64,000 nt of DNA from Lingula anatina. Lineage: Eukaryota > Animalia > Brachiopoda. The translations under genes were made by a program, and so were the position numbers. Shown here one piece after another: positions 14,399-63,973 of the stretch. The stretch is from contig CM120645.1 in the NCBI GenBank assembly GCA_051362555.1, positions 8,308,001 to 8,372,000 of the forward strand, read 5' to 3'. The notes beneath the pieces are model-generated. The model was not told where the DNA came from and did not search any database. It was given only the letters and a program-made list of their open reading frames with translations. The stretch's first letter is position 1. Each line of letters starts with the position of its first letter.

Positions 14399-16486
14399 AT
14401 GCCTTTGGAGACCACATGGTACAAAGCATTTTGCGTCAAATGCAGTGCCTCGGCGTTCCAAATTATAGGGAAGCCGAAGGGATTCATGTTCTTAATCGCA
14501 ATGACTGCGTTCTTGGTCTTCCTATTTCTTAACCTGAAGATGGAGTCACTGCATCACACAAAACGGATAACGTTGAAGGATTTTTCGGATTTTATAAACG
14601 GTTCAGGTGAGTTGTTTTACAATACATCTATTTGCAGTCGTTTATATTTCTCTCTGTCTAAATAGCCAATGGTGTTTAGAACTTCTCGTCTGATTTTGTC
14701 AATTGTCAACCGTTGTATGGGCATCTGGTGGCTTTTCTATTTTTAAGTTTCCATTATTCAGAAAAGTCAATTTGCACACGTTAGTGAATTGAAGTGTTTT
14801 AGTCACAAATAAGCCAGTTACGCGAGCCAGTTACTTCCAAAGCTGTAATTAATTCTCGGCGCTGCCAGTAATTACGCCGCGGGGTATTCAGGGCACACAC
14901 CGTGATCACAAGATACCGTAAATAGATTTTTAGAAAATAGATTTTTCATGTGAACGCAGCCTTAGTGTAATGAAGCTCTCTGATCACAAATGGGTTGAAC
15001 AACTCATTAGTTCATCTCTATTTTATAAGTTAAAACTAAAGTTTAATCAGAATTGAGCAGCCTTACACCGCCTACAACAGAAGATTAATTTTTTTACTTG
15101 AGAACTAATCCTGTTGTATATGTAATTGTAAATAATATAAATGTAATGTTAATATGTTCGTATTTTAGAAAACAGAAGCACAACAAATATGGTTCCGCCA
15201 ACACGGGGAGGACACGAGGCCAAATTCTCAAAGAATATTAATATCTCGACAGACTGTTCATATTTTATAAACGGTTTAGGTGAGATGTTTAACAATGCAT
15301 TTAATTTCATTAATTCATATCTTTCTCTGTCCAAACTATGTTAAGAACTTCTGGCCTAATTTTTTCAACTGTCAACCGTTGTTTATTTTATCATGAATTT
15401 TTTATCAAGATCAACTGCCTGACATCTCCTACGCAGGAGATCTATTCTTAAGAAGAAAAACAGTTCTAAAATGGTTAAGATTTACCCATTTTAGAAAGAA
15501 GAAGAATGATAAATTTAGTTCCGCCTACATGGGAAGAACTGGAGGCCAAATTCTCAAAAACCGGGATAAAACTCGGAGGTCAGTGGAAGCCGAAAAACTG
15601 CACAGCTCAAACGCACGTGGCCATCATTATACCCTTTCGTGACCGCGACGCACACTTAAGAATCTTCCTGAACAACATGCACCCATTTTTCCAGAAGCAA
15701 AAACTGGACTATCGAATCTATATAGTTGAACAGGTAGGCCTGCTCAAGAGGATTGAAGAGCACGATTCTCTTCTTTTTCTTATTTACAAAACTGGCTTTT
15801 GATACCTGTACCTTGGCTGTCGGCTGTTCCTGGGAAGCCACCAAGCCAGTCCCTTCAAAAACGTCAAGGTCAAATTAGCTTTATTACCGGTAATATAGGC
15901 CGTCCTATTGGTTAAAAGGTAGGCCTATAAAGTTCGTCAAGAACAAAGAGCTATTCTTTTTATCCCAACTTATGAAAAATCGGCTTTTAGACTATTTTAA
16001 TCTAAACCTATAAACACGATAAATAACATTCGCAATTATGGAAATGGTTTGAAACGATAGTTAGGGACAAGTTATAAACCGTTGGGGTATATTGTGATGG
16101 ACTGACTTTATCAGCATACCAGCTTTAGTTGCCTTCCTTATTGATGCCGTATTCAATATAACTCATTTAGAAAGACTTCAATCATTCCCTACATAATTTT
16201 ACTTGTAGAAAGCTGATACTTTATTCAACCGAGGTCTACTAATGAACATAGGATTTGTTGAGTCAGCTAAAATAGACAGAGATTCGTACGACTGTTTCGC
16301 CCTTCACGACGTCGACTTGATAGCAGAAAACGAGTGGAATTTCTACAACTGCGCAGAAAAAGTGAAACACATGTCATCCAACGTTGATAAGTTCAAAAAA
16401 GGGTAAATCTTGCAAACATTGCTTGTGTGTCTTGGTGCATGTGCATGTTTGTGCATGTAAATAAACGCGCGTGCGTGTGTGTGTGC

Positions 16487-16524
<38 letters not shown>

Positions 16525-17041
16525 AGAGATGGTTTTGTTGTTGAATAAAAAGTAAAAGTTTTCCCTGCTGTATCTTCCAATTGTACTTCAAATGTGAGTG
16601 CATTTCACGCACTTGATACAATTTGCATTCCTTTGTAGTGTTGCATTTTTATCTACCACAACACAGTTTGGCTTTACACATGATACTCATAGATTAAATC
16701 AATTTTTTACAAATCATGCGAACTCCACACCAAATTTTATCAGCCATGCACCTTTGCTTACTCAGACCTGAGCCCCAATTATTTTGCAGGATTCCCTACA
16801 AGGAATACATTGGAGGAGTGACCATGTTTACTAAATTACAATATCGTCAGGTGAACGGCTTTTCAAACACGTATTTTGGGTGGGGAGGCGAGGACGATGA
16901 CCTTTATGAAAGGTATTTGTTTTCCTATTGATACGTCAATATGTATCTTATGTCGTCATGAGATAGTGACGTCATTCTCCAGTTTGTTGGGAACGGCGTC
17001 GTGTAAAATTGCGTCATTGTTCAAAAGCAAGTTTTATATAT

Positions 17042-17084
<43 letters not shown>

Positions 17085-20000
17085 GCATTATTGATTATTA
17101 TTATGATCGAGGGTGAGAGGGGGGTTGCTAACTCACCATCAATTCTTATGCTTATAGGAATTACACAGATAGAAAACCGTTTCGATGGTCAATTTTTAAC
17201 GTTTTTCAAGGTTGGATATCCATTATTTAAGTGATAGAATGTATCTAATATTTGCAAACAGTTGGGTCAAAGAACTTCTTTGATTCGGGCAATATTAAAC
17301 CGTTTTTAATTTGCATCTAGATAATCTCTTCCCTTCGCTGCCAAGGAGGAGCACTCATAACTTATGAAGATTAATATTTATATAGGATTTAATAAAACTT
17401 TTTTTTTGGGGGGGGGGGGAGTGAGGGTCTGCCCGTAAATATATCTTTCTTAAAAAGCACATCAATAAAATGTAAATAAAATACAAATAATATCCATAGA
17501 TAAACCAATTGATTTACAGAATCGTCAAAAATAAGACGGAGGAAATTACCAGAGTACCCCTTGATATTGGGCGGTACAGAATGATAAAACACAAGACGGA
17601 GTCTGGCAATCCACTAAATCCGCTCAGGTAAGGTTGTGTTAAATTAGACTGTGAGTGCAAGAGAGAGAGAGAGAGAGAATATGATTTTTCTCACTTACTT
17701 TATCCATTTTCGTCTTATTTGTCCCAATTTTGACTGATTGGACGTATGCGAAGGAAATGAAATAAAAGCAGTTTTTAAACAGCGTATCCCTCTCACTAAA
17801 GCCCCCTTTACACTGGACGGCGTCCTTTCTGCGTCCAGCAGTACGGCCCAATTTGAGAGTTAAAAAAAATTATAATACTTTACGTGCCGACAACTGGCCG
17901 ATCATTGAGCATTCATTCTGATACAAAATCAATGCTCGTGCCTCTTTATTAAGACCACAGCGATGTCAAATTTCATGGTCGCAGAAAGGACGCCGTCTAG
18001 TGTAAAGGGGGTATAAGGAGCCTCACAGTGAAAGATATATCAATGGTCACGCTTGGTAGATCAATTAGGCTTGGTGTTCTAATCCTCATATCTCCAGTCA
18101 ACACGATGATCGGTTGCCTAGTACGTTATGCAACAGTAAAATTAAATCCATAGTACCCTTGTAGCAAAGTACATAAATGCGGTAGGGTGACTTTTTTTGC
18201 TAGGGGAGTATACTAATAAGACCAACGGCCCAACTTATGATTTATTTGTTATATTTTTATTTTTTCATTTATTATTATTATTTTGAAAGTATATCTCTTT
18301 GGGGAAATTCCCCCAGCCATCCGCCTAACCAATCTATTTTGTCACAGCACAAGTTTTGTAATTTTTGAATGAATAAATCTGATTTTTTTCTCAGATATAC
18401 GTTACTCTGGCCTGCAATGAAACGTTGGAAAGTGGATGGGCTAAGTAGTCTTGAAGGGACTTACAGTGTGTTAAAGACCGACGAGTTCCTACTGTACACG
18501 AGAATATACGTGGATGTCGATCCACATGCCGTTTACACAAACATTAAGGTATGCCGTCAAATGAAATTGTCTTGAATGTCTTAAACATTTTTGCCGTATT
18601 TCCACCTTGTGAAAGTCTAAGACCCCATTCCCACAGATTTTAGATCGATCTATCCCTGTGGGGAGTCTCGCTAGGTTACTGTCAGCTTACCCGGCTTAAG
18701 CGTCTGTCCCGCCTACTAAAAGCTGTAAGGGAGTAATAAACTACCGTGCACCCTCGGCTGACATCAATTTCGCGTGAACCCCCAGGGAGTTAGTTCGAAC
18801 TAGATGGATCGATCTAAATCTATGGGAATGCACTTTATCACCCCATTTCCATAGAATTTTAGATCGATCTATCCCTGTGGGGAGTCTCACTAGATTACTG
18901 TCAGCTTGGCCGGCTTAAGCGTCTGTCCCGCCTACTAAAAGCTGTAAGGGGGTAATTAACTATGGTGTCCGCTCGGCTGACTGCAATTTAGCCTGAACCC
19001 CCAGGGAGTTAGGTCGATCTAAAACTTAATCTTTAGATCGATCTTAATCTCTGGGAAAGCACCCCACAGGGATAGATCTATCTAAAAAATCTATGGAAAT
19101 GGGGTGTAAGACAGATATGATGTTGTTTGCAACGTACTTGTACAATCACTTGCATTTCTGTACTCTACTCAATGCCAAGAGGAGACGCGTTACTATGTTT
19201 TAATAATATGTTTTAATATGTAATCAGTTTGCATTCAACGAGAGTCCCCGCGAAGTTGAATCAATCTACGTAGAATGATCGTTTCATTGGGAATGAGCCC
19301 TTAAAGATTTCCAAAGACCCAACATTGAAGGGGGGGTCCGAAACTTGCTCTCCTAGCGGTCAAAAGTCCTGTTAAAGAGCTTTTGACTTTCGTTTCTTCT
19401 ACATTTTAGGGAAAAGTTTTAAGTCCAAGGGAATTACAACGACTGCTAAAATGGAGCAAGGAGGTGAGATTTTTTATACAAGTAGGATGTTAAAAAATAC
19501 AATTATAAGCATGGCAAACTTCATGAATTTCCATATTTTAAAGTTCGCTGATCCCCGTGGTACATTGTGTATGCACCGGGGTATAATGGACTTAGGTCAG
19601 ATAATGTCTCAATTCATTATTTAGCAGACACAGTTTGGAACCGATTTGCAAGAAAGTTATGTAGCCAACGACCTAGTCCCGGTGTAACAGGAATGGAAGT
19701 CCGGGCTCCCATATGATTAGTACATATTAGGGTTAGTTGGAGTATTGGGGTTAGTATATGGGACGAATGTCAACTGGACAAAATAATGGAAAGCGGACTA
19801 CGGTTCCTAGCGGACTTGCATTCCTGTTACACCCGAGATTTCAATGTGAAAGTATTCATGAAAGAATTAAAATGTATGTTTCTAAAATAATAATTTATTA
19901 TAAAATGGTCAAACAAGAAAAATTTACCAAGGTGGAATATTCTAACACATTTTATACACATAAAAGAAAATAATAATGTATATAGAAGAATAATCTTGGA

Positions 20001-22208
20001 CAAGCATATAATACAAAGGATTTGCATATAACAATAGTGTGTGAAATAGCATGATTTTTTTTTCGAATCGATTTAGAATAAGGTGTGAAAGTATATGCGA
20101 AAGTCCAATTAAGAATATGAAATTTGATACCATTGAATTTGTCTTTCTGGTATTAATAAGTTATTTATTACAAACTTTTATCCATATACTGAAATTGTGG
20201 ATGTAGTTGACACTGGCAGCACCCTTATCTCATGTTTCAGTTATGCGGATGTAAAAATGGCGGAGTTTGTGTGGTGAATAAAAGGAGTAAACAGAGAACA
20301 TGTACCTGTCCTTACCCATACGGCGGATTACACTGTGAACGGAACTGTAAGTTATGTCTAGAAACATTGATGAATTGAAAGAAACTCTGAAATTACAAGC
20401 AACAATTTTAGTAACTTTACTTTCAAAATCCAAATATCCCAACTGTTTTTTTCCCTAAAATGAAACTAAAAATTCTTATCATAATCACTGTGGCCTCATC
20501 TGCTTTTTATTTTTAAAAAGAAACGTTTTGTTGGGTATTCTACATAAGTGTATAAGTGCGATCGGAATTTGGACATAGTGCTAGATCCATTTTGTCATGG
20601 AGTCGAATTCATGACAATAATTAAGCTATGACTCATGAGTAAAGAAAAGAGGAGATATATGACTATAAAGTAGAAACATTGAGTATTGATCATCATTTAT
20701 TTATATCATGAGATTAGTATTAATTTTTATCATAAGTGACTTGCCCACGGCAGTTTGAGGTAATGTTCGAGACAAGTTGCTACAGTTTCAATATGACATT
20801 GGACGGCTCCTTCTACAAGGCTAAGAAGAGCTGTGAGTCAATGGGAGCAAGACTAGTCGCCGTGAATGACGAAAAGGAGCACAGGTTTATTACACAGTTC
20901 CTTGCCGCTGATGCAGGTAAGTAACACTCCATTCCTATGCCTAAATTGATCTAGCAGGATCGACCCATCTCCGAGGGGTTTCTTGCTGAATTGCACTCAT
21001 TGCTCTGATGTCTGGCACGCCTACTGAAGCTGTTAGTGGATAATTAACTATCGTTTAGCAGCTTCAGTAGGCGAGCCTGACATCTACGACGATTGAGCTT
21101 AATGTAATTTAGCGAGAATCCCCTCGTAGATGGGTCGATCTTGCTAGATCGATCTAGGTATGGGAATGGGGTCTAAAATTTAACATGCATGTGTATTACA
21201 CATGTTACCTAGCGTCGCAAACAACTTCACATAGTGACGTTGCCAACAAGAACGAAACACTGTGCACATGCATTACATACTTGATTTTTCCGAAATAGTC
21301 TGAAGTCTCATTTTTGTTGTTAATTGTGTGTATGTACATGTAGCCATCTTGCAATATACATGTATACACATATCGTCTCCAGTAAAGCGATACTAGTTGT
21401 TCCGTGACGTACGTGTGTTTCATTGAACTTCAGCTCGATCCGACCGTTGCTGGTGGACATCAGCCACAGATGAAGCCTCTGAAGGTACCTGGGTATTGTC
21501 CGGATGGGGGAACATCCCAGCAAGGTTCACTGCGTGGTATCCAGGTAAACAGCGCACGTTTTCCGTTAGTAAAATTGAGTATACTTTGTTAATCAAAGTT
21601 TGCTTTCTATTTTTATCTTAAATATTTGGTAAGACCATCCTACATGCCTTCTGTGTTATTTAAGTGTATCATAGTATGGCAAGACACGGGTCAGGTTAAG
21701 AAGGTGTTGGCTGTGGTGTACTGGCAATAATCATTTAGACAAGTAGGGCCTAGTGGCACTACTGAGAACTGACGCAATGGTATAGGCCCTACGTCTGCTT
21801 TCATTATTTAGAGCGAACTTCATTAATCGACTGCATGATGTATTCCGCTGTAGAACGATCACGTGCCAGGTTACTAACAGATTAAAAAAAAACGCTCAGT
21901 AATGGTTGTGTTACTGCACTTATTCTCAGCGTTTACCTCACTACGCATGCGCACAGGTCCATACAGCTGCAATAAAATGCCATCGCTTCAAACATTTCTA
22001 AACCGGACCCTATATCGTGTATGAATTAAGTACGCCCGCAATGACTTAATGTCTTACAAGTAACTTTGTTATATTCTTTCTGTCAGGTGAGCCAAATAAC
22101 AAAGGAGGCAATGAAGACTGTGCGAGGTACAACAGGGGAAGACGAAATTGGGAGGATGCCCCATGCTTGCAGACTTGCAACTTTATATGTGAAACAAACG
22201 CGATTTAG
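14399..22208 (+). CDS. GT7 beta-1,4-galactosyltransferase-like protein with C-terminal EGF-like and C-type lectin domains, copy 1 (569 aa)
   Basis: Exons 14399-14606, 15169-15279, 15495-15733, 16209-16402, 16790-16912, 17520-17627, 18395-18548, 19410-19463, 20241-20346, 20737-20916, 21434-21544, 22087-22208 sum to 1710 nt, open, all GT-AG. N-terminal TM segment; motifs VAIIIPFRDR, FNRGLLMNIG, HDVD, GWGGEDDD, YRMIKH, DGLSSL; EGF CGCKNGGVC..CTCPYPYGGLHCE; CTLD with EPN..EDCA..WED..C..FICE. Confidence 0.85.
17800..18013. mobile_element. Harbinger-like MITE
   Basis: TIRs ccccctttacactggacggcgtcctttctgcg / cgcagaaaggacgccgtctagtgtaaaggggg with TAA flanks. Confidence 0.75.
18621..19106 (-). mobile_element. 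Two adjacent family A MITEs plus an extra terminal fragment
   Basis: 18621-18834 and 18839-19064 match family A in reverse. 19065-19106 repeats a terminus and ends at TAA. Confidence 0.75.
19679..19835. mobile_element. MITE with tgtaacaggaat TIRs and CCGG flanks
   Basis: ccggtgtaacaggaatggaagtcc ... ttcctgttacacc. Related copies at about 5565-5730 and 58109-58279. Confidence 0.7.
20925..21173. mobile_element. Fully palindromic Tourist-like MITE
   Basis: TAA on both sides and arms complementary along most of the length. It sits 8 nt into the intron after the first lectin exon and is absent from copy 2. Confidence 0.8.
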
Positions 22209-22411
22209 ATAACGGCTAGTATTAAAATAACGCAAAAAAATGGAGAGGGGTGGTACCGGTATTAATAAAGCTTGGGAATTCCCCTTTCACCGTCCATTGG
22301 AAGTGGAAATAACCTGCTCGTATTAAATTATTTTATAGCAGCCGTCCTAAGTATTTTTCTGCAAACATGGCCATGTCTTTATACATATACAGTATACAGA
22401 AGTCCGATTGC

Positions 22412-23690: not shown

Positions 23691-24269
23691 CGAACCGTGG
23701 AATCTTTGGATTGCGTTATCCACTAAGTTAGTCTAAAACGTAATGTCCTATTTCGAGCCCACGCTTGAATTAAGCGTACAAAATTATTTAAGTTTAGGGC
23801 ATTCATCATAGGCATATGTAAAAGGTTCATTACAACGGGCTTAAAGGGCGGTTCGTTCAACCCTCCCCCCTCCAAAAAGAAACAAAAAAAACGTACCCTT
23901 CTCCCGGGCCTGATGCAACTAAGCAAGTCCTTGTATAATTATAATGCTGATAATCATTGCATTGTAATGTGCTGTGTGTAGCTTAATTGTATTGCTGGAC
24001 GTGTAAATACATTGTATGAATAAACTCGTATTTATTTTTAGAAAAAAAGGTCAACAATATGCCTTGTACTCAAAAAGTACAGGTACTTCAAAATCATATC
24101 AACATGATGCCATGAGCAAAACCTTTTGGCTGTTGGTTTTAAAATACCCACGTGATTGTGTTTATGAATATGCAACAGCAGGTATAAAAAGGGGAAATCG
24201 CACTTCTGCTATCTGAACTAAGTCGATGTTTTTATGTAGTCGCCAGTGTCGGCCAGCGCACAGTTAAAC

Positions 24270-25149
24270 ATGGAAAAGGGAAATGAACCAGCGCTGTACA
24301 AAGCTTTCCTCGTGGCTTTCGTTTTGATCGAAGTTGGCCTCTTCAGCGTGTGTGTGCAGGGGTGGCCGTCGCTGGTCTACATCTTCAGGGATACAGGGTT
24401 TTACGCAAATCTCTGCGACAACGACACTCTCACATATTCGCCCGACATGAACGCAACAGCGTCCAGCGATTCAGTATACGATCACCTAACAGAGATTGGA
24501 TGTGCCCCACAACAAGAAATGTTGAATCTAGTATACACGGTGGCGTCTGTAGCGTTAGTTTTTACCTCAGTTCTGGGGCATATATATGATCACTGCGGAA
24601 CATGGTTCGTTCGAGGGATATGTATGTAAGTCCTGCACGTTTTAATGTGTGTAACTGTGTGTATTTGTGAGTGCATTGTGAGTTCAAAATGAAAAGAAAG
24701 GATGAAGCAATTTTATGCTATTAATGTCATATAAATCAAGCAGCTGCCAGTGCAGTAGTGAATGCTTAATTTTACGCACGTCTTCATGTACGCTCCGTTC
24801 GGTCAGGCCAGATGCCCAAAGACATGCCCGTTTAACCGGTTGGGATCAATACTACATGTAGCTCATCCTTACTTTTTTTTCCAATGCGAACGCTCAGCTA
24901 TGGATATTTAATCCAAAGTGTGTGTTTCATTTGATTTACATACTAAGTGCTTTAAGTACGTGTGACCTAGCGTATAATGCAGGTCTATTAGTTTGTTTTA
25001 TATGGATGTATTAAGCAATATCAATACACCGGCAGATCCAGGACTTTATTAAAGGGGTCAAAATCCCAAAAATATGTTCAGTTGTACCAACGGTGAGGCT
25101 AGATGGGGACAATTTATTATGCAATGTACATAAGAATGGAAAAAGTTCT

Positions 25150-25233
<84 letters not shown>

Positions 25234-28200
25234 GAACGTCAGAATATATAATCAGCCCGCCATAATCATGCCTTTACCTATTTCAGGTCATTATGCTTCA
25301 CTGGTACATTGCTCATGGCTTTCGCGAGGCCAGGTAGGTCCTAAAGTAACACGACCGAATTGAGGGTAACGCTCAGTTCTACAGTAAATCTATGCACAAT
25401 ACCGATAACGAATATTGATGAATTGATGTTAAAATGCTTCCAAAACTGTCATTGAATAAATATCGCCAGAAAAATTAATAAAAAAGATACCGTTACTGAA
25501 GACACACAGTGTGTTTTAACAATGAAACACACGTCCTCAAAGGGCCCCCTGATCCGATCACGTTACAGACTCGTCCATGCATGCAAGAATCCGTATTCAG
25601 ATGGACTTATGGACGTTTGACCCAGCATGACCTCGCTGTACGGTCTTGGCTGGTAATACAAAGCCACTTGGAAACTAGTGCACGTCAAATTGACGATGTG
25701 CCGTTGTTATAACAGAAAAACATGCATCGCAAAATTGACAGGGAGTGTTATATATACCAGATGTTGAATCTATAGTCACATGTTCACCAAACGGGTATAA
25801 TAATTGATATCCCCGGTCCACATATAATGGAACGGATAATTTAAGCCCACAAGTATAATTTTCACCACCGTAATCATGGTTTCATATATTTATGTCCACT
25901 AAATTACTTTAAATTGCCCCAGTAAATTGTCACTAAAAGGTATATGTCCCTAAAAAAGTCGATATACATGTAGATACTATGTTATTCCATAATTGGTCTT
26001 GCGAATGACAATTTAAGTCGACAATTCTCAGCTCTTATTTCGATTTTTATTATTTACTCATAGTGCAGAGCTAAATGTATGTAAGAACCCGGGTCTTTCT
26101 AGCATCTCGCGCACTCTTCGTTTCAGGTCTGGAATGGCTACTATTTCCAGGATCCATCGCCCAATACCTAGGTGGCGTTATGTACCTTGCTACAGATATG
26201 CAGATGCCGCAGCTTTTTCCTAAGAGCAAAACGACTCTTGGGATTGTGGTTTCTGGAGCAACAGACATGAGCACGTCGTCTTTTCTTTTTGTTAAGGTAA
26301 ATTAAACAAAACCTTTTTTTACCTGATGTTTTCCAAAAAGACAGGTACATTCTTGACATAGTGGATGTTGGCTTCAAATGCTATCCAATGCCTAACAACG
26401 AACATTCAAGACTGATAACCAGAGGAATTAATACAAGTGATCTCTTTTTTATTTAGACGTAAGCATATTAATTATTTCATTAGATAAACATTTTTCTTCA
26501 TTTAATTTCAAGCTAGCTTATGATGCGGGGATACCATACCAAAGCTCCATGGTGGTATTTGCGTGCATTGGTTTCGTCATTTCTACTATTACTACGATTT
26601 TGCTGCCCCCTAGGGACCACGACACAAACAACAAAGCAGCAGATAATGTATTTACAAAGTGTAGGGCTTTGTCGCTGTACTCGTTCAATTGTTTGACACC
26701 ACTCGAAATAAATTCCAAAAATGCTATAACCGAGCGAGATGATGAAGCTTGTGCGGATGTTTTACATTCAAATGTCAACATTCAAAATAACTTGAATACA
26801 AACGAAAATGAGAAGGAAGGGGGCACACACGCACCGGCAGAAAGCATCTCTCTTTTACCTCCTACGTCTTTTTCCGACGATAAAAGGAACGGTTCCCAAG
26901 CAGCCGGGGAAAAAGAAAACAGGTCTTCAGACACGCACGAAGAAATTAACATCATCGATGCAGAGCTGAAACCGTTATCCCATGACTCAAAAGAAAACTC
27001 GGATGATACTGCCCAGCTTTCCTCAATATTCAAAAGTCCGTTGTTTTGGACAACGGAAATCTGGTTTGTTGGCAATGTTCTGTTGGTAATGATGTATTTT
27101 GGGAGCTTCAACTCGATCATAGATTACCTATCACACGGGGACCAAAGTAAAGGTGAGAGGCAATGTCGTATATCAACGACCACAGGGATCTTGCTTCCAT
27201 TACTCCAAGCTTTAGGGTTTATTCTAAAAAAATCTTCAGCGTGTATCTGCCGTTGCCGTCAAAACGACAGAGACGTGCTTCTGATAGAAGTGAGTTTTAA
27301 ATATTAGTTTGGAAAGATTTACTTGCTAGCGAGCGTTCGCCACACTCCTCTATCGTTGCAGTGTTGTATTGCGGCCATTTGTAACACAATTAACAGACAA
27401 TTGAATGAATGAACTGTCATCACCATTGTAAAATGTGCTTAGCGTGTACAGGTGCTATTCAAGATATACCGGGGTCCGTTTCACAAAAAGTCTGAAACTC
27501 TTGAACTAACCTTAAACTGATAAAATCGGATAGCCTACTTCATATACGCAAAGTCAACTTCGTGGTGTAGGCCTACATGTAGGTCTAAGAGATATGAAAA
27601 ATAATTGCTTTACAATAAATGCAACCGAAATGGGCTACTATCACCACTGCATATAAAAGCTTTAAGGAGAGGTTCTCAAAAGACACCCCCCTCCAAAAAA
27701 ATTGGAGCTAAAAAATTAGAATGTAGGTTTCTTTGTTAAATGCAACAACCTGTAAGTCGGCTTTAGCAATGTCTTAGTAAGCGAGAATTTAAGCTGATTG
27801 ACTTTTGATTTTTTATGAAACGATAATGATCTTGTTCTCTACCTCCTCCATTACTTTTTATGGACATAGTTTATGCGGTTTATATCCGTAATGGAGTCAG
27901 GCGTCCAATGACAATTGGATATAAAGGATACTAAAGGACTTGTTTCCTGAGTAATTAATTTCAGTCCGTCATTATGTTTGAAAGGACTAGCTCTACTTGA
28001 CTCATGACAAACAATATAATATAATATAATATAATATAATATAATATAATATAATATAATATAATATAATACTCCTGTTTGCAATTCAATACAATACATT
28101 TAATCAAAAATCGAATAATATTTTATGTAACAGACAAACAAACAAATTATACTTATTTCCCAGTATTATCTTTAGTTAAATAATTACAGTTTTTCTCGAT

Positions 28201-30662: not shown

Positions 30663-30697
<35 letters not shown>

Positions 30698-37268: not shown

Positions 37269-40200
37269 CTAAATCGCCTTCGTTTCACATATAAAATTAC
37301 AGATCTTGGAACATTGACTATCATCCCAATAATCTCTGTCTCTGAGGTACTTCGCACAGTCTTCATTGCCGCCCTTATTGTCTGGCGCGCCTACCACAGA
37401 AAGAAGAACCAAAATTACGTCATTGTGGGCGAAAAGCGTCTTAGACGAGTAAAACGTTTTATTTGTCCTATATAACATTCAACGCACGAATGTGTCCGAT
37501 TGGTAGGGCCTTGTGTGGTTAGAGGGTCGTCATTATTTATTATTTTAGACTTTTTTAGACAAAATCTACGTTTGCACTAACAATTAGGGGAATAGTTTGA
37601 AACGATGTCGAGGGACACATATAGAATGCACGGATTTCTAACTAGGAAGCCAAAGCCAAAGCGCACATTCGTGAGTTGATAGTCAAATTTTTGGCATTTC
37701 GTGCGAGACATTAACCAATCCCTTCATAATCTCTGTATTTTTAAGAGTTCCTCAATTTGATTGCAGTGAAAGCATGTAGGACGGTCTCACAAAATACTGA
37801 AGACAAAAAATGAAAACTAAAACATAATTACACATAATGAAATGGAGAAAAAAATAGGTGTTCTGTGTACCTGGATACCAAGCAGTGAACGGTGCTGGGA
37901 TGTCCCCCCATCCGGACAATACCCAGGTACCTTCAGAGGCTTCATCTGTGGCTGATGTCCACCAGCAACGGTCGGATCGAGCTGAAGTCCAGTGAAACAC
38001 ACGTCACGGAACAATAGTGCCGATTTATTGGAGACAATATGTGTATGTATATTGCAAGATGGCTACATGAAGGCCCCAAGTCAAAAAGAAATGAGAGACT
38101 AACTTTTTTGAAAATAATACATGTGATGTGCGAGACTTATCTTACCTATATTAGCAGCAAGGTACTGTGTAATAAATCGGTGCTCCTTCTCGTCGTTCAC
38201 GGCGACTAGTCTCGCTCCAATTGACTCACAGCTCACCTTGCCCTTATTGAAGGAGCCGTCCAATGTCGTGTTGAAACTATAGCAACTTGTCCCGAACATT
38301 ACTTCAAACTGCGGTGGACACGTCACTTATGATATGCAAAATTAATACAAAGACTATCAACTAATGAGCAATAACTATGTTTTTGTTCATGATAAACTTA
38401 ACAGGATAATGACTCTTCGTTTTGACCAAAAATAATTTTCCTGGAGTAAACAACAATTTCCCCATACTTACCAATGGTTAATGAATCAATTTTTACATTC
38501 AAAGTCAGTCCCTGGTATAGCCATCAATGGAGGTCACGTGGTCTAAAGACAAGCTCAGATATCAGAATAATTTTTGTGGTACAACAGAGTATATTATATT
38601 TCTATGAGTTGTTCACAATGTTTTATTGTGAAATATAGATCTCATACAAAGAGTTATTATCCCTTTAAGCATACGTTGTATTAGATATCATATCTATTTT
38701 ATTGGAACACGTAAGAGCCAACTGGGTTTTCACGTCGCACTACCTTTGTGTTCTGTATATGAAAGGCATGGCGTTTAAGAATTAAAATTCTTGACATGAA
38801 ATTAACCCCATGGCACTTTATGAATGAATTAAAACACCACTGTTGCCTTTTTCCAAGACGAGTCAAAGAAAATATATTTAAAAAAAAAAGTTGGTTGTGG
38901 GTGTATATTTGCCAACTTGGTGTAATAGAATATTAGTTCGTACATCCAGAATTATCCCACCAAAAAACATTATTATTTCAAAAGACTTCCTGCATTGTAA
39001 ATAACTGAGAGAAAGCTGTGGATAATTGCCCTCTACCAGGAGATTGATTTCCTTTAATAAGACATTCAGATATTTTTCTGCCACCTTGGAGGCGGATAAA
39101 TATTTCTCTGGCTAATTCTCTGCATATTTATATTTGCACTGCTCAGCAAGAATTTGATTGCACGGAATTGACGTCATTGGTCAAATGGCACGGAGGCAGT
39201 AGATAATAAGGCTAATGAATGTGTGTAAGAGAGGAAGTAGCAGTAAAGCGAAATATGCCAAAATTAATCTAGCAGAATAATTCCAAATATTGATCACAGC
39301 GTTGAAATACCAACGTAACCTTTTTTCTTTGTTCCTTTTTTCTTTTCAGCAAACACAGTGACGATGAAAGGGGGGTTTGGGTTAATTTAGGAAAAGCTAG
39401 CTGAAATATTAGATTTTTAAATTAAAGACAGTAAAAGTCATTCCTTGTTTAGGGCTACTTTCAATAGGATTAACGAGTTTCTAAACATAACTTACGGTTC
39501 CGTTCGCAGTGTAACCCGCCGTATGGGTAGGGACAGGTACATGTTCTCTGTGAACTCAAGTCATTTGATTGAACACAAATGCCGCCATTCTTACATCCGC
39601 ATTCCTGAAATATGACATTAAGGTCCTTCCTGTATCAACTGCACACACATTCAGAGTGTTTGGATCTTACTGACATCCAAAAGACAAACGGAACGTGTAT
39701 TTACATTTTGAAGTCTGATTTCAGTTGGAGCCCCGTTTGATCTGGAACCAGGGAGTTGGCTCCATAACTTTCCTACAAATTGGTTCCAAACTGAGTCTGC
39801 TAAATAATGAGGCGTTGTCTGACCTAAGTCCATTATACCCTGTTATATACACAATGTACCACAGGGATCAGCTAACTTTAAAATATGGAGATTTCATGAA
39901 GTTTGCCATGCTTGTAATTGTATTTTGGTTTTTACAAATTCACAAAAAAAAAGCTCACCTTCTTCTCAGTCCATTTAATAAGTCGTTGAAAGTCACTTCC
40001 AAGGATGTGGTTCTTCTTTGCCTAAATTGGAGAAGAAACGAAACAGTCGGGTAGCCAGGGGGTATAATGGGCATTCTCGGATTTTTTGTTCGCATCCTAA
40101 AAACCCCAAAACTACAATTTTAGAAATCCAAGGGATCGGAGAGATAAAGTGTCCGTTATAGCTTTATAGTTACAGCTATATATTGTTTTGTGACAATAAT

Positions 40201-41460
40201 CACAGATAACTTTGAAATAAAACTTTGAAATAAAATTGTATCTCCAATTTCCATAATAGTTCACCATTTTTGCAAAAAAAGTAACTGGTGGATAACAAGT
40301 GCATAACAGTGAGTAACCTTGGTCATTTTGAAAATTAAAAAAAAGGAAAGACTATGCTCCATCCGACTTATTAAGTTGAGATCACCTTTTCTGCATTGAC
40401 CACGTATTTTCACATTATTATTTTAGCATTGAAAAACGCGGCCTCTTTACATGACTAATATGTTTATATAGATAATGCAAAGTTTCTCTTTTCTTTTGAA
40501 AGTACAAGCCAAATTGAGGTCACCTTTTCTTCATTAATCATATATTTTCACGTTAATATTTTAGTTTTTGAAAACACGGTCTCTTTTAACTTGGGTTGCA
40601 TATACATATAAGGGAATCAATATGAGAAATATATATATATATATATAATACTGATTCCCTTATATGCGACCGCATAATACCACATCTTTTCTTTGTGTAT
40701 TTTCGCCTGGTTATCCTGCTGGAAATGGCATAAATATTTAAGACTTTCAGAACGATTTTATATGACAGCATACCTTAATGTTCATGTAAACGGCATTCGG
40801 ATCGACATCCACATATATTCTCGTGTACAGTAGAAACTCGTCGGTCTTTAACACAGTGTAAGTCCCTGCAAGACTATTTAGCCCATCCACTTTCCATCGC
40901 TGCATTGCAGACCGGAGCAACGAAAATCTGAGAAAAATTAATTCATTGAAGAATAACAAAACCCTTGTTGTAACAAAAAGATTGATCAGGCGGGGCCCAG
41001 GGGCATTTCCCAAAAAAAATCATGCTTCTAATTATAAAAGAAATCGTAAGATGGGCCGCTCCATCGTTGATTATACATGTATTTAAAAAAGGAAGTTGGA
41101 AGGACCATTGTTTGAAAACTGGTGTTACTTCATCCCTTCAGATACGTCCAATCAGTCAAAATTAGAATAAATAAGACGAAATTGGATAAATTAACAAATC
41201 AAACTAAATAAAATAAATAAGAAATGTATGCCAGTTTATCTTTTCCGAATAAGTAACTCTCTCTCTCTCTCTCATGCAATGCACCCACAGACCAACACAT
41301 AACCTTACTTTAAAACGTTTAATGGATTGCCAGAATCCGCATTATGTTTTATCATTCTGTATCGTCCAATATCAAAGGGTACTCGGGTTGATCCCCCGTT
41401 TTTGGAGACTCTGTTAATGTAAGAAGTATAAGTGTTAAGCTGCAGAAACTGAGAATCAGT

Positions 41461-41513
<53 letters not shown>

Positions 41514-43480
41514 GTTTATTTTATTAAAATTGAAAATTCATTGAGGTGCTTTTACAGAAGGGTCTAATAGTCAATGTAGATCTTCACAAGGCACGAGTGT
41601 CTGTTCCTTATTAGTCTCAAGTTGACAGCGAAGAAAAATGGATATCTAGGACTGGGTTCCCATGCCTAGATTGCTCCATCGGGATCGGTCCAACTCCCTG
41701 TGGAGTCTCACTAAATTGCTATCAACTAACCTGCTTAAATGTCTGTCACGCCTTCCGATTACCCCCTCATAGCTTTACTAGGCGTGACAGACACTTAAGC
41801 CGGGTACGTTGATAGCAATTTAGTGAGACTCCACAGGGAGAGAGATCGATCCAAATATTTGTGGGAATGGTCCCTAGGACTGGGCTTCCATACCTAGATA
41901 GATCTAACAGGATCCATCCCCAAGTGGTTTCAATTATTGCTATCCAAAGGTTAAAACGACTGCTCTTTTCAGGACAACTGTCCATAGGATAGGAAATTTA
42001 TATAGCGGGTAGTGTTAATCATAGACCCCATTTCCAGAGATTAGATCGATCTACTTTAGATCGACCTAACTCCCTGGGGGTTCACGCTAAATAGCTGTCA
42101 GCCGAGCGGACACGAAAGTTAATTACCCTCTTACAGCTTGTAGGCGGGACGGACATTTAAGCGGATTATCTGACAGTAATCTAGTGAGACTCCCCGCGGG
42201 GATAGATCGATCTAAAAGCTCTGGGAATACAGCCATAGGAGAGCGCTATCAAGTTTTGATGAAATTGGGCCATACATACCCTTTTGACATAACAACAGAA
42301 ATTAATATATACCTTCTATAAAGGTCATCGTCCTCGCCTCCCCACCCAAAGTACGTGTTTGGAAAGCCGTTTACCTTACGATATTGTGATTTAGTGAGCA
42401 TGGTCACTCCTCCCATAAGTGTCGGGTAGATGAGTCTGAAATAAAATTGGCGTTCAGTTTTAAATATTAAAGGGATATTAACTCTTCGTATGAGATCTAT
42501 ATTTTACAATAAAAACAATGTAAGCAACTCATAGAATTATAATATATTCTGTTAAACCACAATAACGGCTGTTATAGCTATTATTCTGATATCTTAGCTT
42601 GTCATCAGACCACGTGACCTACATAGATGGCTATACTCTGTAATAATCTCTTAAGAGATTATAACATAAAACCAAACCTTTTAGAAAAAAAAAGAAACTA
42701 ACTTTGATTGTAGAAATGGATTTGCAAATCATTGATAAGGATGGGGAAATTGTTGTTTACTCCTGGAAAATTCATTTTTTGGTCAAAACGAACAGTTATT
42801 ACCCTTTAAGATAATGTTGCTGGTAGAAATGATAAATATGGTGCTCTAAAATCGGCGGAGTTCACACGTAGACGATGAATTGTAAAGTTTGATCTAAGTA
42901 ATTAGTAAAGAGTGTAGAGCTAAACTGTGTTGCGGTTGCAAAATGGAATCATTGCAAAGGCAAGCAAATTAAACCTAAACCACCAAATTCACACGTAAGG
43001 TGGGCCCTACAACTGCAGAATAGGTCTACGGATTAGCGAGAACACTTTATACTTTATGTCACCATCACCCCCCCTTCTCTCTCACACACACATACACACA
43101 TGCGCGCACGCGCGGGCGTTCATGTAAACGCAGATATATGCACATGCAAAAACAAACAAGAACATGATCTCACACACATTTACCCTTCTTTGAACTTATC
43201 AACGTTGGCTGACATGTGTTTCACTTTTTCTGCGCAGTTGTAGAAATTCCACTCGTTTTCTGGTATCAAGTCGACGTCGTGAAGGGCGAAACAGTCGTAC
43301 GAGTCTCTGTCTATTTTAGCTGACTCAACAAACCCTATGTTCATTAGGAGACCTCGGTTGAATAAAGTAGTGGCTTTCTACGAGTAAAAGTAAAATAATG
43401 TAAGGGAGTGAAAGATATACGCGACTCTTCGTAATTGAGTTTTATAGATTATCAAAAGGTTAGCACTTAAAGTGTTCTTG

Positions 43481-43525
<45 letters not shown>

Positions 43526-44978
43526 GAGAGGCGAATTATTTCTCGTCGCCTATGACCAATTATCAAAAGCCTGTTTTATAAGAAAAAAGAGAGAGAGATA
43601 CGTCCACTCTTCTCGAGCAGGCCTACCTGTTCAACTATATAGATTCGATAGTCCAGTTTTTGCTTTTGTAAAAATGGGTGCATGTTGTTCAGGAAGATTC
43701 TTAAGTGTGCGTCGCGGTTACGGAATGGTATAATGATGGCCACGTGCGTTTGAGACGTGCAGTTTTCCGGTTTCCAATAACCGCCGAGTTTTATACCGGT
43801 TTTCAAAAATTTGGCCTCGAGTTCTCCCCACGTTGGCGGAACCAGATTTATCATCCTTCTTCTTTCTAAAATATGTATATATTAACGATCAATTCAGATT
43901 TTTAGAACTGGTTTGCTTTTCAAATAACGAGAAGAGATCTCCTGTTATAGATGTACGGCTATTAATTTCGATATAAGTTTTGATTATTAAGACATAGTTT
44001 AACATAGTAAAACAGTTTAACTTATGGGTCATTCAACTCATTTGATATGAAAAGTTTCAGTTCACTAGGGTGGTACATATAAAACGTATTTTTCTGAATA
44101 ATAGAAACGATTTAATTTAAATTGGAAAAAATGAGGTTTAGTTCAAGCAGGCAATAAAAACGGTTCACAGTTGACAAAATCAGGCTAGAAGATCTTAACA
44201 TTATTTGGCCGTTGGGACAGAGAAAGATATGAATGCTGAAAATAAATGTATTGTAAAATCTTACCTAAACCGTTTATAAATTCTGAGCAGTCATTCAATA
44301 CATTGATCTTCTGTGAAAAGTTGGCATCGTATCCTCCCCATGTTAGTGGAGCCAGATTCATCATTCTTCTTCTTTCTAAAATATGTATATCTTAACGATT
44401 TATTACAGTTCTATAGAACTTGTTTACTTCTCAAGTAACGAGATTAGATCTTCTGTTAACTGTAAGTCTGTTCAACTCTGATTAAACTTTAATTTTAAAT
44501 TATAAAAAAAAGTTTGATGGGTTGTCTAACTCACTGGCCAAAAAGGTTTGTAAGTCGACTTTTTTGAATTATAGAAACCGTTAACTTAAAATTTTGAAAA
44601 AGTGAACAATTTAAAGCGCCGCCGGTTTATAAAAGCAGTTCACAGTTTAAAAAATTGGCCAGGAGATCTTAACACTATTTGCCGTTTGGGCAGAGAAAGA
44701 TATGAATCACCGACAAAAAATGTACTCTAAAACAACTCGCCTAAAGCGATTATAAAATCCGAATAGTTCTTCAATGCAATCCATTTTTTGTGATGCAGTG
44801 TGTCCATGTTTAAATTCAGAGATAGGAAGATAAAAATCGCAGTCACTGAGACTAAGACCATGAATCCCTTTGGTTTCCTTATAATTTGTAACGCGGAGTT
44901 CCTACATCTGCAACTGAGTGACTTGTTGTCGCCGAAGGGATATTCTGTCTTACTGGGGTTTGCCTGTAAACCGTGCAT
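37269..44978 (-). CDS. GT7 beta-1,4-GalNAc/Gal-transferase-like protein with C-terminal EGF-like and C-type lectin domains, copy 2 (581 aa)
   Basis: Minus-strand exons 44978-44741 (GC donor), 44375-44265, 43865-43627, 43377-43184, 42435-42313, 41410-41309, 40927-40774, 40021-39959, 39604-39496, 38325-38146, 37981-37871, 37390-37269 sum to 1746 nt, open. Exon order and phases match copy 1. The lectin has APD/WDD. Confidence 0.85.
38402..38664 (+). mobile_element. Kolobok-like MITE, family D, internally deleted
   Basis: TTAA flanks and ggataat(a/g)actcttcg TIR; matches 45544-45858. Confidence 0.75.
41650..41874. mobile_element. Palindromic Tourist-like MITE related to family A
   Basis: TAG flanks and complementary arms (ccctgtggagtctcactaaattgctatcaac). 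A second truncated start follows it. Confidence 0.7.
42024..42234 (+). mobile_element. Family A MITE, second subfamily
   Basis: ATA target duplication; reverse match to 29751-29964. Confidence 0.8.
42471..42805 (-). mobile_element. Kolobok-like MITE, family D
   Basis: TTAA flanks. The paralogous intron of copy 3 (about 62430) lacks it. Confidence 0.8.
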
Positions 44979-48190: not shown

Positions 48191-48351
48191 TATATATAGA
48201 TAGATAGATAGAGTTTGTAACTTTAAATTGGGATCTTTTTTCCCAGACAATACGATATGATAATAGAAAATAAAGGAAGTGCGTTTCTGAGACATAATAT
48301 GTACAAAGTCATAGAAAATTCTGGCTAAAAATGCATATATATTACAAAATG

Positions 48352-59971: not shown

Positions 59972-61383
59972 ATGCACGGTTTGCAGGCAAGCCCCAGAAA
60001 GACAGAATATCCCTTCAAATGCAGGACCGCGGCGTTCCAAATTATGAGGAAACCAAAGGGATTCATGGTCTTAGTCTCAGTGACTGCGTTTTTTATCTTC
60101 CTATCTCTGAATTTAAACATGGACACATGGCATCACAAGAAATGGCTTGCATTGAAGAACTTTTCGGATTTTATAATCGCCTTAGGCGAGTGGTTTTAGA
60201 ATACATTTATTTTCAGTAATTCAACTCTTTCTCTGCCCAAACGGCCAATAGTGTTAAGATCTTCTGGCCAGGTTTTTTCAACTGTGAACCGCTTTTATAA
60301 ACCTGCGGCGCTTTAAATTGTTCACTTTTTCAAAATTTTGAGTTCACCGTTTCTTATATTTAAAAAAAGTCAACTTGCACACCTTATTGAATTAAAGCTT
60401 TTTGGCCGCAAGTGAGTTAGACAACCCATTAGTTAAACTCTATTTTATTAATTAAAATTAAAGTTTAATCAGAATTGAACAGACATACACGTCCTTTAAC
60501 AGAAGAGAAGCAAACAAGTTCTATGGAACTGTCATTAATCGTTAAGATATACATATTTTAGAAAGAAGAAGAATGATGAATCTGGCTCCGCCATCATGGG
60601 GAGGGTACGAGTTCAACTTCTCAAAGAAGATCTATACATTGAAAGACTGTTCAGATTTTATAAACGGTTTAGGTGAGATTTTACAATACATTTTTTTTTC
60701 TAAATCCATATCTTTCTCTGTCCCAACGGCCAAGAGATCTTCTAGCCAGATTTTGTCAACTGTGACCCGTATTTTATTGCCTGTCTGAACTAAACTGTTT
60801 ATTTTTTCATTTTAAGTAAAACTGTTTCTATTATTCAGAAAAGTCCATTTTAAATGTACCACCTTCGTGAATTGAAACTTTTTCATTAAAATGAGTTGAA
60901 TAACCCATAAGTTATGTTTTAATAATCAAAATTTATGTCGAAATTAACAGCCTTGCATCTACAACAGCAGATTTCTTCTCGTTATTTAAGAAGCAAACCA
61001 GTTCTAAAAAACTTTAATAAATCGTTAATATATACATATTTTAGAAAGAAGAAGGATGATAAATCTGGTACCGCCAACGTGGGGAGAACTCGAGGTCAAA
61101 TTCTTAAAAACCGGTATAAAACTCGGAGGTCAGTGGAAGCCGGAAAACTGCACAGCTCAAACGCACGTGGCCATCATTATACCCTTCCGTGACCGCGACG
61201 CACACTTAAGAATCTTCCTGAACAACATGCACCCATTTTTACAAAAGCAAAAACTGGACTACCGAATCTATATAGTTGAACAGGTAGGCCTGCTCGAGAA
61301 GAGTGGACGAATCTCTCTCTCTCTCTCTCTCTCTCTGTCTTTTTACCTCCGCCAAGGAGGTTATGTTTTCACCCCTGTTTGTT

Positions 61384-61415
<32 letters not shown>

Positions 61416-62124
61416 ATCAACATAACTCAAAAAGTTATGGACAGATTTTGATGAAATTTTAGGGAACTGTGAGAAGTAGGCCAAGGAACAGGTGATTAGT
61501 TTTTGGTGGTGATCCGGATCAATAATCAATCAATAATCAATAATAAAAAAAAAATAAATAAATCATTATAGAATGAAAATTTAAGGGTGAAACGGCATTG
61601 GGTGGAGACTTTGCTACCTTGGCGGATGTCTGCGCTCTCCGAGTGCTTTTCTAGTTTCTTATAAAACTGGCTTTTGATAATTGGTCATAGGCGGCGGGAA
61701 ATAATTCGCCTCTCTACGATGTGTATATATGCTTTTACACTTTAAGTGCTAACCTATTGATTCCGTAATCTATACAACTCATTTACGAAGAGTCGCGCAT
61801 ATCTTTTATTCCCATACATAATTTTACTTTTGCTTGTAGAAAGCTACTACTATATTCAACCGAGGTCTCCTAATGAACATCGGATTTGTTGAGTCAGCTA
61901 AAATAGACAAAGACTCGTACGACTGTTTCGCCCTTCACGACGTCGACTTGTTACCGGAAAACGAGTGGAATTTCTACAACTGCGCAGAAAAAGTGAAACA
62001 CATGTCAGCCAACGTTGATAAGTTCAAAGAAGGGTAAATATGTGTGAGTTCTTGTGCTTGTGTTTGTTTTTGTATGTACATGTTTCTGCGTTAGAATTAC
62101 ATTAACGCCCGTGCGCGCGCGCGC

Positions 62125-62169
<45 letters not shown>

Positions 62170-63973
62170 AGGGTAGATGTATTGGCGACAGAAATGCATA
62201 ACGTGTTCTCGCTAATTAATCTGTATTTTCCAGTTGTACCTTAGGGTGAGTTTCGCGGGTTACATATAATTTGCTTGCTTTTACAATGATTCCATTTTGC
62301 AACCGCAACACAATTTGGCTCTACACCCTTTACTTATTACTTAGATCAAACTTTGCAATTCATGCTCGACGTGTGAACTCCACCGATTTTAGCAGCAGCA
62401 TTTATCATTGCTGCGAGCAACATTATCTAATTTAAAACTGAGCGCCAATTTTATTTCAGACTTCTCTACCCGACAATTATAGGAGGAGTGACCATGCTCA
62501 CTAAATCACAATATCGCCAGGTGAACGGCTTTCCAAACACGTACTTTGGGTGGGGAGGCGAGGACGATGACCTTTATATAAGGTATATATATATATATAA
62601 TTTCTAATGTTACGTCAAAAGGCTACTTGTATATATGCCGTCATGAAATAATGACGTCACTGTCTAGTTTGCTGGTGACGACGGCGTAAAATTGCGTCAT
62701 TTTTTAAAATCATATGTCACGCTTTTGTTTGTTAGGCTTTTTTATCATATTTATAAATTTATCATTATTGACAGATTTGTGCCTTGTAAAGAGCTACATT
62801 GACTAATAGACTTTCTGTAAAAGCACCTCAATGAATTTGACATTTAAATGAAATAAACATCATATACATAAATATACCAACAACTTTGCTGTTACAATCC
62901 CCCATTTTGTAACTTATTATCATATTACATTTCGTCATTTTAATAAATGACAATATCAGTCATATTGACTTATTTCTTATTTGATTTTGAGCAAAAACTG
63001 AGCTTCGTTGTGCTTGTGAACATTTGGCTACATAAAACTGATGTTCAGTTTGTGCAGTTTAAAACTTATACTTCTTACATTAACAGAGTCGACAAAAACG
63101 GGGGATTAACCAGAGTGCCCTTTGATATTGGGCGATACAGAATGATAAAACATAATCCGGATTCTGGTAATCCATTAAACCTGTTAAGGTAAGGTTATCG
63201 AGAAGAGCCGAGGTCTAGCAAGGCCGAGACCTAAACATGGCGGGCCTACATCAAAGGAAGTCCGCGTAATCCTGAATGAATGTCAATGAATGTCATTGAG
63301 AGACCATAAAAGGATTATGCAGTCTTCCTTTCATGTAGGTCCGCCATATTTGGGTCTCGGCCTTGCTAGACCTCGGCTCTTCTCGATGTGAATGTTCTCT
63401 TAGACTGCGTTTGCATTGCATGAGAGAGAGAGAGTCGCACAAGAGTTGGAGTCATGTTTGTGGTCGGCAGGCGTGTAGAAAGTAAACATTAAGGGAAAGT
63501 TAACTATTCTGAAAAGATAAACTTGCATACATTTATTATTTATTTTATATCTTTATTTATTTATTTATACTATTTCGACTTATTTATCCTAATTTTGACT
63601 GATTGAACGTATCTGTAGGTATGGAGTAACAACAGTTTTCAAACAATGGTCCTTCCAACTTCCTACTGTTTAGACCAACGATTAAGCGGTCCATCTCACG
63701 ATTTATTTTAGAAGCATATTCCTGTTCTGGGAAGTGCCCCAGGGCCCGCCTAATCAATCTATTTTGTCACAACAAGGGTTCTGTTATTCTTCAATGAATA
63801 AATCTAATATTTTTCTCAGACATTCACTACTCCATTATGCAAAGCTACGATGGGAAATGGACGGGCTAAGTAGTCTTGAAGGGACTTACACTGTGTTAAA
63901 GACCGACGAGTTTCTACTGTACACGAGAATATACGTGGATGTCGATCCGAATGCCGTTTACACTAACATAAAG
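59972..63973 (+). CDS. GT7 beta-1,4-GalNAc/Gal-transferase-like protein, copy 3; 3' exons expected beyond the window
   Basis: Exons 59972-60185 (GC donor), 60562-60672, 61045-61283, 61840-62033, 62460-62582, 63087-63188, 63820-63973. Frame is open with HDVD, GWGGEDDD and YRMIKH intact. The same phase-0 donor follows NIK. Confidence 0.85.
61343..61655 (+). mobile_element. Helentron-type non-autonomous element (HINE/DINE-like)
   Basis: Same family as 58888-59115. Inserted in a T-run and absent from the copy 2 intron (about 43585). Confidence 0.75.
63197..63387. mobile_element. Near-perfect 190-bp foldback element
   Basis: atcgagaagagccgaggtctagcaaggccgagacc is exactly complemented at the right end. 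Absent from copies 1 and 2. Confidence 0.8.

Follow-up and report, generated by a model that had tools for sequence, protein, structure and literature searches.

A lectin-bearing branch of family 7 glycosyltransferases in Lingula anatina: tandem genes with a probably captured EGF and C-type lectin module as a candidate built-in glycan reader

Translated searches of a 64,000-nucleotide stretch of Lingula anatina DNA (CM120645.1, positions 8,308,001-8,372,000, forward strand; hereafter the window) reveal three glycosyltransferase loci, whose products are built around a family 7 glycosyltransferase (GT7) domain of the B4GALT1 type. In copy 1, the GT7 domain continues in frame through a short helical spacer into an EGF domain and a C-type lectin domain. 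We consider it very likely that this fusion is real and under selection. We propose, with a probability of about 0.45, that these are tandem GT7 genes in which a captured lectin would serve as a built-in glycan reader, tethering the enzyme to glycoproteins or regulating it there.

Copy 1 (14399-22208, forward strand) is assembled from 12 exons joined across GT-AG introns (11/11) into a frame of 569 residues with no internal stop, in agreement with the phase-compatible 12-exon chain of the first-pass annotation. The encoded domains follow the order membrane anchor, stem, GT7 domain, helical spacer, EGF and C-type lectin. The coding part of exon 1 (14399-14606) supplies the start codon, the cytoplasmic tail, a type II anchor at approximately residues 28-46 and the start of the stem; these residues are the only hydrophobic segment of the protein (peak 2.34), and copy 2 likewise has a single hydrophobic segment near its N-terminus, the arrangement of a type II membrane anchor. 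An acceptor-like site near 14308 suggests that a non-coding exon lies upstream. Exon 2 (15169-15279) extends the stem and is a chimeric internal duplicate, its 5' part resembling the start of exon 3 and its 3' part the end of exon 1. It lengthens the stem in all three copies (15169-15279, 44375-44265 and 60562-60672) and has no counterpart in the unfused Lingula paralogue P0004.

The catalytic domain is encoded by exons 3 to 7. Exon 3 (15495-15733) carries the N-terminal part of the GT7 domain with the uridine diphosphate (UDP)-binding IPFR motif (Pfam PF13733, E 5.5e-25), and exon 4 (16209-16402) the FNR motif and the metal-binding DVD motif (PF13733, E 9.6e-15). Exon 5 (16790-16912) contributes GWGGEDDD and the donor-gate tyrosine, at the position of Tyr289 in bovine B4GALT1; it matches PF02709 (E 7.5e-19) and aligns without gaps to bovine B4GALT1 (E 3.5e-12). 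The flexible loop and the Met-x-x-His metal ligands are found in exon 6 (17520-17627), where the match to the C-terminal GT7 family has E 0.11, and exon 7 (18395-18548) completes the fold and ends in a phase-0 donor. The Pfam scan covered exons 1, 3-7 and 9-12, and matched no family in exons 1, 7 and 11.

Beyond the catalytic domain, exon 8 (19410-19463) encodes an 18-codon spacer, predicted to be helical in the RefSeq paralogue described below. Exon 9 (20241-20346) encodes an EGF-like domain with six cysteines, which matches the donor lectins discussed below and scores 17.7 bits against Pfam EGF (E 0.0044; cut-off 21.5). The C-type lectin is divided among exon 10 (20737-20916; Pfam Lectin_C, E 1.8e-5, above cut-off), exon 11 (21434-21544), which holds one of two cysteines that the donor lectins lack, and exon 12 (22087-22208), which holds the second of these cysteines, the sugar and calcium site EPN...E...WED and the stop codon (Lectin_C, E 9.3e-7, above cut-off). 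An AATAAA hexamer follows at 22264. The junctions that connect the two halves (18548/19410, 19463/20241 and 20346/20737) are in frame, with phases 0, 0 and 1. The donors after exons 7, 8 and 9 agree with the consensus at 6 of 9 positions, the same as several donors within the catalytic domain; this score is also attained by 17 of 189 intronic GT sites.

Copy 2 (37269..44978, reverse strand) is a complete 12-exon paralogue of 581 residues that is 75.8% identical to copy 1. Its exons 1-6 lie at 44978-44741, 44375-44265, 43865-43627, 43377-43184, 42435-42313 and 41410-41309, and exons 7-12 at 40927-40774, 40021-39959, 39604-39496, 38325-38146, 37981-37871 and 37390-37269. Exon count, as had been claimed for this copy, and all 11 intron phases equal those of copy 1, and one of its donors is GC; this GC donor follows exon 1 in copies 2 and 3 (44741 and 60185), where copy 1 has GT. 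Copy 3 (59972..63973, forward strand) comprises exons 1-7 and then meets the end of the window. All 379 of its aligned residues are identical to RefSeq XP_013406056.1, with one 8-residue gap in exon 1. This 581-residue Lingula anatina protein (LOC106170630, "uncharacterized") contains GT7 and Lectin_C and continues past the part shared with copy 3 into EGF and C-type lectin domains; the locus is thus copy 3 or its allele, with the same architecture as copies 1 and 2. Identity to this protein is 76% for copy 1 and about 89% for copy 2. RefSeq models the locus automatically as one protein with two isoforms (XP_013406056.1 and XP_013406055.1), so that the earlier concern that automatic annotation could split such a gene did not materialize for copy 3. 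No separate record for copy 1 or 2 was present among the matches listed in the protein searches, and a query with exon 10 matched two of 8 candidate proteins, each of them from Lingula anatina. The isoforms X2 and X1 of LOC106170630 differ solely inside exons 9-10. This difference could be due to mutually exclusive use of EGF/lectin exons or, alternatively, to a haplotype artefact in the assembly concerned.

Selection also supports the fusion. Between copies 1 and 2, the ratio of nonsynonymous to synonymous substitution rates (dN/dS) is 0.25 for the EGF and lectin module, 0.32 for the GT7 domain and 0.24 for exon 9; the module has accumulated 36 synonymous changes over 107 sites and 42 nonsynonymous changes over 406 sites (Fisher p 3e-8). 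The added module has therefore been kept by selection as coding sequence. Agreement of phase over five junctions in both copies would have a chance probability of about 2e-5 if the copies were independent; because they share descent, selection is the better argument. Synonymous divergence (dS) between the copies is 0.10 in exon 11 and 1.14 in exon 12, a contrast that may reflect gene conversion affecting exon 11 or else an exchange of exon 12, which binds the ligand.

Both parents of the fusion have relatives in Lingula. A profile search (12,255 matches, of which the best 150 were listed) returned two proteins that match residues 408-580 only, at 65-67% identity. They belong with a family of Lingula lectins (XP_013421962.1, XP_013397739.1 and XP_013397736.1) in which a hydrophobic N-terminal stretch and a PAN-like region precede the EGF and C-type lectin domains. 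These lectins share the EGF and lectin module with the fused copies over approximately 170 residues, but lack the transferase domain, have six rather than eight lectin cysteines, and carry FDD or FND in place of WED or WDD. It is likely, judging from these similarities, that the lectin was captured from a secreted lectin gene. The signal and PAN exons of the donor lectins left no remnant in the window (best E 1.7), which argues against the lectin exons being the tail of an intact neighbouring gene and accords with the earlier remark that the lectin has no signal-peptide exon of its own. The space available within introns 7 and 8, together with the missing donor exons, led us to reject a separate lectin gene there.

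On the catalytic side, unfused Lingula GT7 proteins are 63-68% identical to the GT7 half, which falls within a Lingula-only expansion (support 99) and forms a clade with the unfused XP_013415334.1 (P0004) at 100. P0004 is placed beside copy 1 at 83/88 (one of the two trees was a quick tree), and an approximately unbiased test does not reject a clade of fused genes only (p 0.163), so P0004 may never have had the module or may have lost it. The spacer is probably the former terminal exon of the GT7 gene, an old tail rather than new sequence, since four unfused Lingula paralogues extend beyond the last GT7 strand; homology of these tails reached p 0.026 in one of eight shuffle tests, the other seven not being significant. 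The exon 8 "linker" of the first-pass annotation is thus an in-frame spacer, as described, though probably inherited, with weak sequence support for that origin. In the history that we infer, a lineage-specific GT7 gene would have acquired a splice donor within its last exon, through which it became joined to the four final exons of a lectin gene; internal duplication would have produced exon 2, and the fused unit would later have been duplicated twice.

The catalytic half retains the motifs of this enzyme family. The DxD, GWGGEDDD, Met-x-x-His and UDP-binding motifs are intact in all copies, and PF13733 and PF02709 are both matched by exons of copy 1 and by the RefSeq paralogue. The structure model was made for the RefSeq paralogue rather than for copy 1; its GT7 domain, with predicted local distance difference test (pLDDT) values of 87-98 in blocks, superimposes on B4GALT1 (lactose synthase) with a root-mean-square deviation of 1.5-1.6 Å (Foldseek E 5e-34). 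The donor gate differs between the copies, being Tyr in copy 1, Leu in copy 2 and Ile in copy 3. Tyr or Phe at this position selects galactose, and Leu or Ile N-acetylgalactosamine (GalNAc) (PMC5560668). On the basis of this residue, copy 1 is a predicted galactosyltransferase making N-acetyllactosamine (LacNAc), while copies 2 and 3 are predicted GalNAc-transferases making the GalNAc-terminated equivalent, LacdiNAc. The galactosyltransferase label originally given thus suits copy 1, as a prediction, and not copies 2 and 3, which carry the GalNAc-type residue. Beyond these copies, Tyr is seen at the donor gate of Lingula P0004 and of one protein each from Dreissena and Macrostomum, which suggests that the galactose type was gained repeatedly among invertebrates; Lingula P0008 has Gln at this position.

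The lectin half is less conventional. PF00059 and the core cysteines are present (Lectin_C E 4e-14 in the RefSeq paralogue), the Atlas model aligns to perlucin-like and lectican lectin domains, and the best alignments of copy 1 exon 12 are to codakine, the best solved match, and langerin. EPN motifs bind mannose, glucose, N-acetylglucosamine (GlcNAc) and fucose (PMC9630629), and EPN is probably ancestral here, because four of five free Lingula lectins have it; two cysteines common to the fused lectins are missing from all five. It is unlikely, in our estimation, that the lectin-like domain binds no sugar at all and acts as a protein-binding, oligomerizing or trafficking module. The first calcium-site glutamate is gone from copies 2 and 3, WND is found in no copy, and purifying selection on the module persists despite these changes, all of which would fit such a role; copy 1, however, retains EPN, the Glu that follows and the last Asp when aligned to codakine and langerin, and the loss of the WND asparagine predates the fusion, since the donor lectins already have FDD.

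The reading that we prefer, a captured lectin acting as glycan reader, can be cast as a mechanism. By analogy with B4GALT1 chemistry, each copy would be a type II Golgi enzyme that requires Mn2+, takes its sugar from a UDP-sugar donor and caps GlcNAc termini in β-1,4 linkage, copy 1 adding galactose (Tyr gate) and copies 2 and 3 GalNAc (Leu and Ile gates). Under the rules established for C-type lectins, the EPN site of copy 1 would recognize, with Ca2+, branches that end in GlcNAc or mannose; its ligand would be the acceptor before capping rather than the galactose-capped product. Since the predicted ligand is the acceptor, copy 1 could tether itself to an uncapped branch, cap neighbouring GlcNAc ends and then release, so that a multi-branched substrate would be held until capped. 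For the APD site of copies 2 and 3, a changed ligand or a loss of calcium-dependent sugar binding is probable. The reach between the catalytic and lectin sites would be set by the spacer helix together with the EGF domain. A bolder version, which we regard as rather unlikely, makes copy 1 a completion sensor, built with an immune-type C-type lectin, that grips uncapped GlcNAc and lets go once it is galactosylated, in reverse of the known add-ons that bind product, with donor gate and lectin site having changed together after duplication (Tyr with EPN; Leu or Ile with APD) to give a reader-writer series for LacNAc and LacdiNAc caps.

A number of observations weigh against the glycan-reader proposal. 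The lectin site is non-canonical, with Glu replacing the Asn of WND in copy 1 (WED), and APD and WDD with no first glutamate in copies 2 and 3, so that the full EPN, Glu and WND calcium site is absent from the latter. The lectin part was folded with low confidence in both predictions, and the EGF and lectin module of the RefSeq paralogue alone, from a 6-row alignment, gave a mean pLDDT of 41.5. The acidity of the Golgi and its modest calcium level may make C-type binding weaker. Selection says that the module matters, not that it serves catalysis. In addition, where GALNTs, POMGNT1 and MGAT4 carry a lectin domain, its ligand is the reaction product, the opposite of what is predicted for the EPN site of copy 1 (PMC13018970).

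Also to be counted on this side are several of the RNA results, obtained from four of nine raw-read runs of the same species (X1, X4, X7 and X9; 6-30% of each run) over positions 18340-22400. A result in favour comes from the stranded run X1, in which exons 7 and 9-12 carry sense-only reads at approximately 3-12 fold depth and the non-repeat intron bins are empty. Depth is lower in X7 and X9, X4 has no reads on exon bins, and exon 7 is covered in three of the four runs. Exon 8, with 36 judgeable bases, has no reads in any of the four, and there is no spliced junction read among the 15 of 71 joints listed, all 15 being repeat-derived. The check proposed at the outset, RNA across the three junctions from transferase to lectin, yielded reads on exons 7 and 9-12 and, among the joints listed, none at these junctions; the fusion junction is thereby neither shown nor contradicted. 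All six of the listed read variants in exon 10 are copy 2 bases, and depth rises with identity to copy 2, from exon 8 (70%, no reads) to exon 11 (96%, the deepest); much of the signal is therefore paralogue-derived. Reads on exon 12, which is 74% identical to copy 2, pass a 90% threshold in X1 and X9, which suggests that a copy 1-type transcript is expressed at a low level.

The missing exon 8 and junction reads are also what would be expected if two neighbouring genes, or a GT7 gene with rare read-through, had been mis-joined by prediction, with the short enzyme as the main product. Translation continuing past exon 7 or 8 would reach a stop within 8-9 codons, which makes a short form possible, and in copy 1 intron 7 contains one AATAAA and intron 8 one ATTAAA. 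We nevertheless consider this very unlikely: neither hexamer occurs in introns 7-8 of copy 2, donors and acceptors are kept in both copies, and RefSeq joins both halves. Moreover, exon 8 is separated from the EGF exon by 776 and 354 bases in the two copies, and no donor signal or PAN exon was found in the window.

A different possibility accepts the fusion and places the lectin outside the Golgi, on a surface or shed protein anchored to matrix, mucus, chitin or microbes largely independently of catalysis, for adhesion, defence or modification of the matrix; we think it rather improbable. A type II membrane protein with a C-terminal lectin has the usual layout of surface lectin receptors, and the donor lectins are of the secreted type, P0148 combining a hydrophobic N-terminus with a weak match to PAN. 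The catalytic motifs, on the other hand, are all preserved, and UDP-sugars serve chiefly as substrates in the Golgi. Proteomic data bear on both sides: one peptide of an unfused 351-residue GT7 protein is listed in the Lingula shell proteome (PMC4595640, Suppl. Table 25), but the shell-protein domain table of that paper has no Lectin_C, and neither PF13733 nor PF02709 appears in a 2026 shell proteome supplement (PMC13425148). A role in the shell matrix was unsupported in the two shell proteome supplements.

The surroundings of the fused genes are themselves duplicated. An SLC43-like transporter gene is present in two tandem copies (~3400-9500 and 24240-31000, forward strand) that alternate with glycosyltransferase copies 1 and 2, which suggests that transporter and transferase were duplicated together as a unit; a partial inverted SLC43-like piece lies at 52608-54016, and one SLC43-like exon matches LAT4 (E 1.8e-7). 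A palindromic repeat of approximately 220 bases, resembling a miniature inverted-repeat transposable element, occurs at 18616-19064, 8949-9186, 29145-29375, 29748-29966 and 42022-42228 and is abundant in the RNA reads. The window also contains an endonuclease fragment of the long interspersed nuclear element type (46951-47421, forward strand; Exo_endo_phos_2, E 3e-6) and a tandem repeat block at 48350-50157.

The architecture is apparently lineage-restricted, being seen so far in Lingula only. Among the 120 best GT7 relatives, Lectin_C is present in one, the query itself. Of 257 stored proteins, 249 match the GT7 part and 10 the lectin, and the 2 that match both are the two RefSeq isoforms; a lectin-side search over proteins of 319-1017 residues gave 176 candidates, the query alone being fused. 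These word-based searches list top matches and miss distant relatives, and the query was itself missing from the profile-search listing, which means that fused forms may be concealed by unfused representatives of their clusters. The Atlas clusters listed, each with at least 50 members, included none that combines the two families. Add-on fusions have arisen independently in annelids, where a PAN/Apple domain is joined to GT7 in the stem of Owenia fusiformis P0057 and at the C-terminus of Ridgeia piscesae P0184.

No description of a GT7 and C-type lectin fusion was found in the openly accessible literature, although a survey of Lingula immune genes may list the architecture. According to the Lingula genome paper, EGF shuffling is frequent, and its available parts contain no such fused gene (PMC4595640); the available parts of PMC12221842, PMC8878817 and PMC8229434 contain nothing on the fusion, and those of the text and supplement of PMC13425148 no GT7 entry. 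The novelty claimed by the first-pass annotation holds in that we found no paper on the architecture, and is reduced by the presence of copy 3 in RefSeq as a fused protein. What is new is that the copies differ in both halves, Tyr with EPN in copy 1 against Leu or Ile with APD in copies 2 and 3.

How Golgi glycosyltransferases choose their substrates is an open question, to which non-catalytic add-on domains are a current answer. The characterized lectin-assisted cases considered here are old and use other folds, whereas here the fusion is recent and both parents are visible in Lingula. Copies that differ at the donor and ligand residue sets make domain deletion and swap experiments direct, and a lectin-tethered galactosyl- or GalNAc-transferase could be a template for substrate-selective glyco-engineering; the breadth of the finding is, so far, one genus.

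Comparison with known systems places the fused copies close to, and outside, several groups of enzymes. With B4GALT1-6 and BRE-4-type enzymes they share the type II anchor, the stem, the catalytic fold (approximately 40% identity), DxD, GWGGEDDD, Met-x-x-His and the donor-gate residue; they differ in approximately 190 additional residues, which form the helical spacer, EGF and C-type lectin. B4GALNT3 and B4GALNT4 are members of GT7 as well. B4GALNT3 is a β-1,4 GalNAc-transferase to GlcNAc and requires its PA14 lectin domain for glycoprotein substrates (PMC13018970). B4GALNT3/4, which are LacdiNAc synthases, resemble what is predicted for the fused copies in β-1,4 transfer to GlcNAc and in a built-in lectin; theirs, however, has a PA14 fold, binds sulfated glycans and inhibits, where the fused copies combine a recent, C-terminal C-type lectin with a B4GALT1-type core. 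MGAT4A (GnT-IVa) has a C-terminal lectin domain needed for activity on glycoproteins (PMC9296478), and like POMGNT1 and the polypeptide GalNAc-transferases it pairs a catalytic domain with a lectin add-on, as the fused copies are predicted to do, though in other enzyme families, with other lectin folds, and with binding of product as opposed to the acceptor binding predicted for copy 1. The ricin-type lectin of the polypeptide GalNAc-transferases, the precedent originally invoked, is thus a valid example of a lectin-assisted transferase and not the only one, as MGAT4, POMGNT1 and B4GALNT3 also belong here (PMC13018970). No homology to the lectin folds of GALNT, MGAT4, POMGNT1 or B4GALNT3 was found, and Pfam identifies only GT7N, GT7C and Lectin_C in the RefSeq paralogue. 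The fused Lingula enzyme may work like these lectin-assisted glycosyltransferases, yet it is a member of none of their families.

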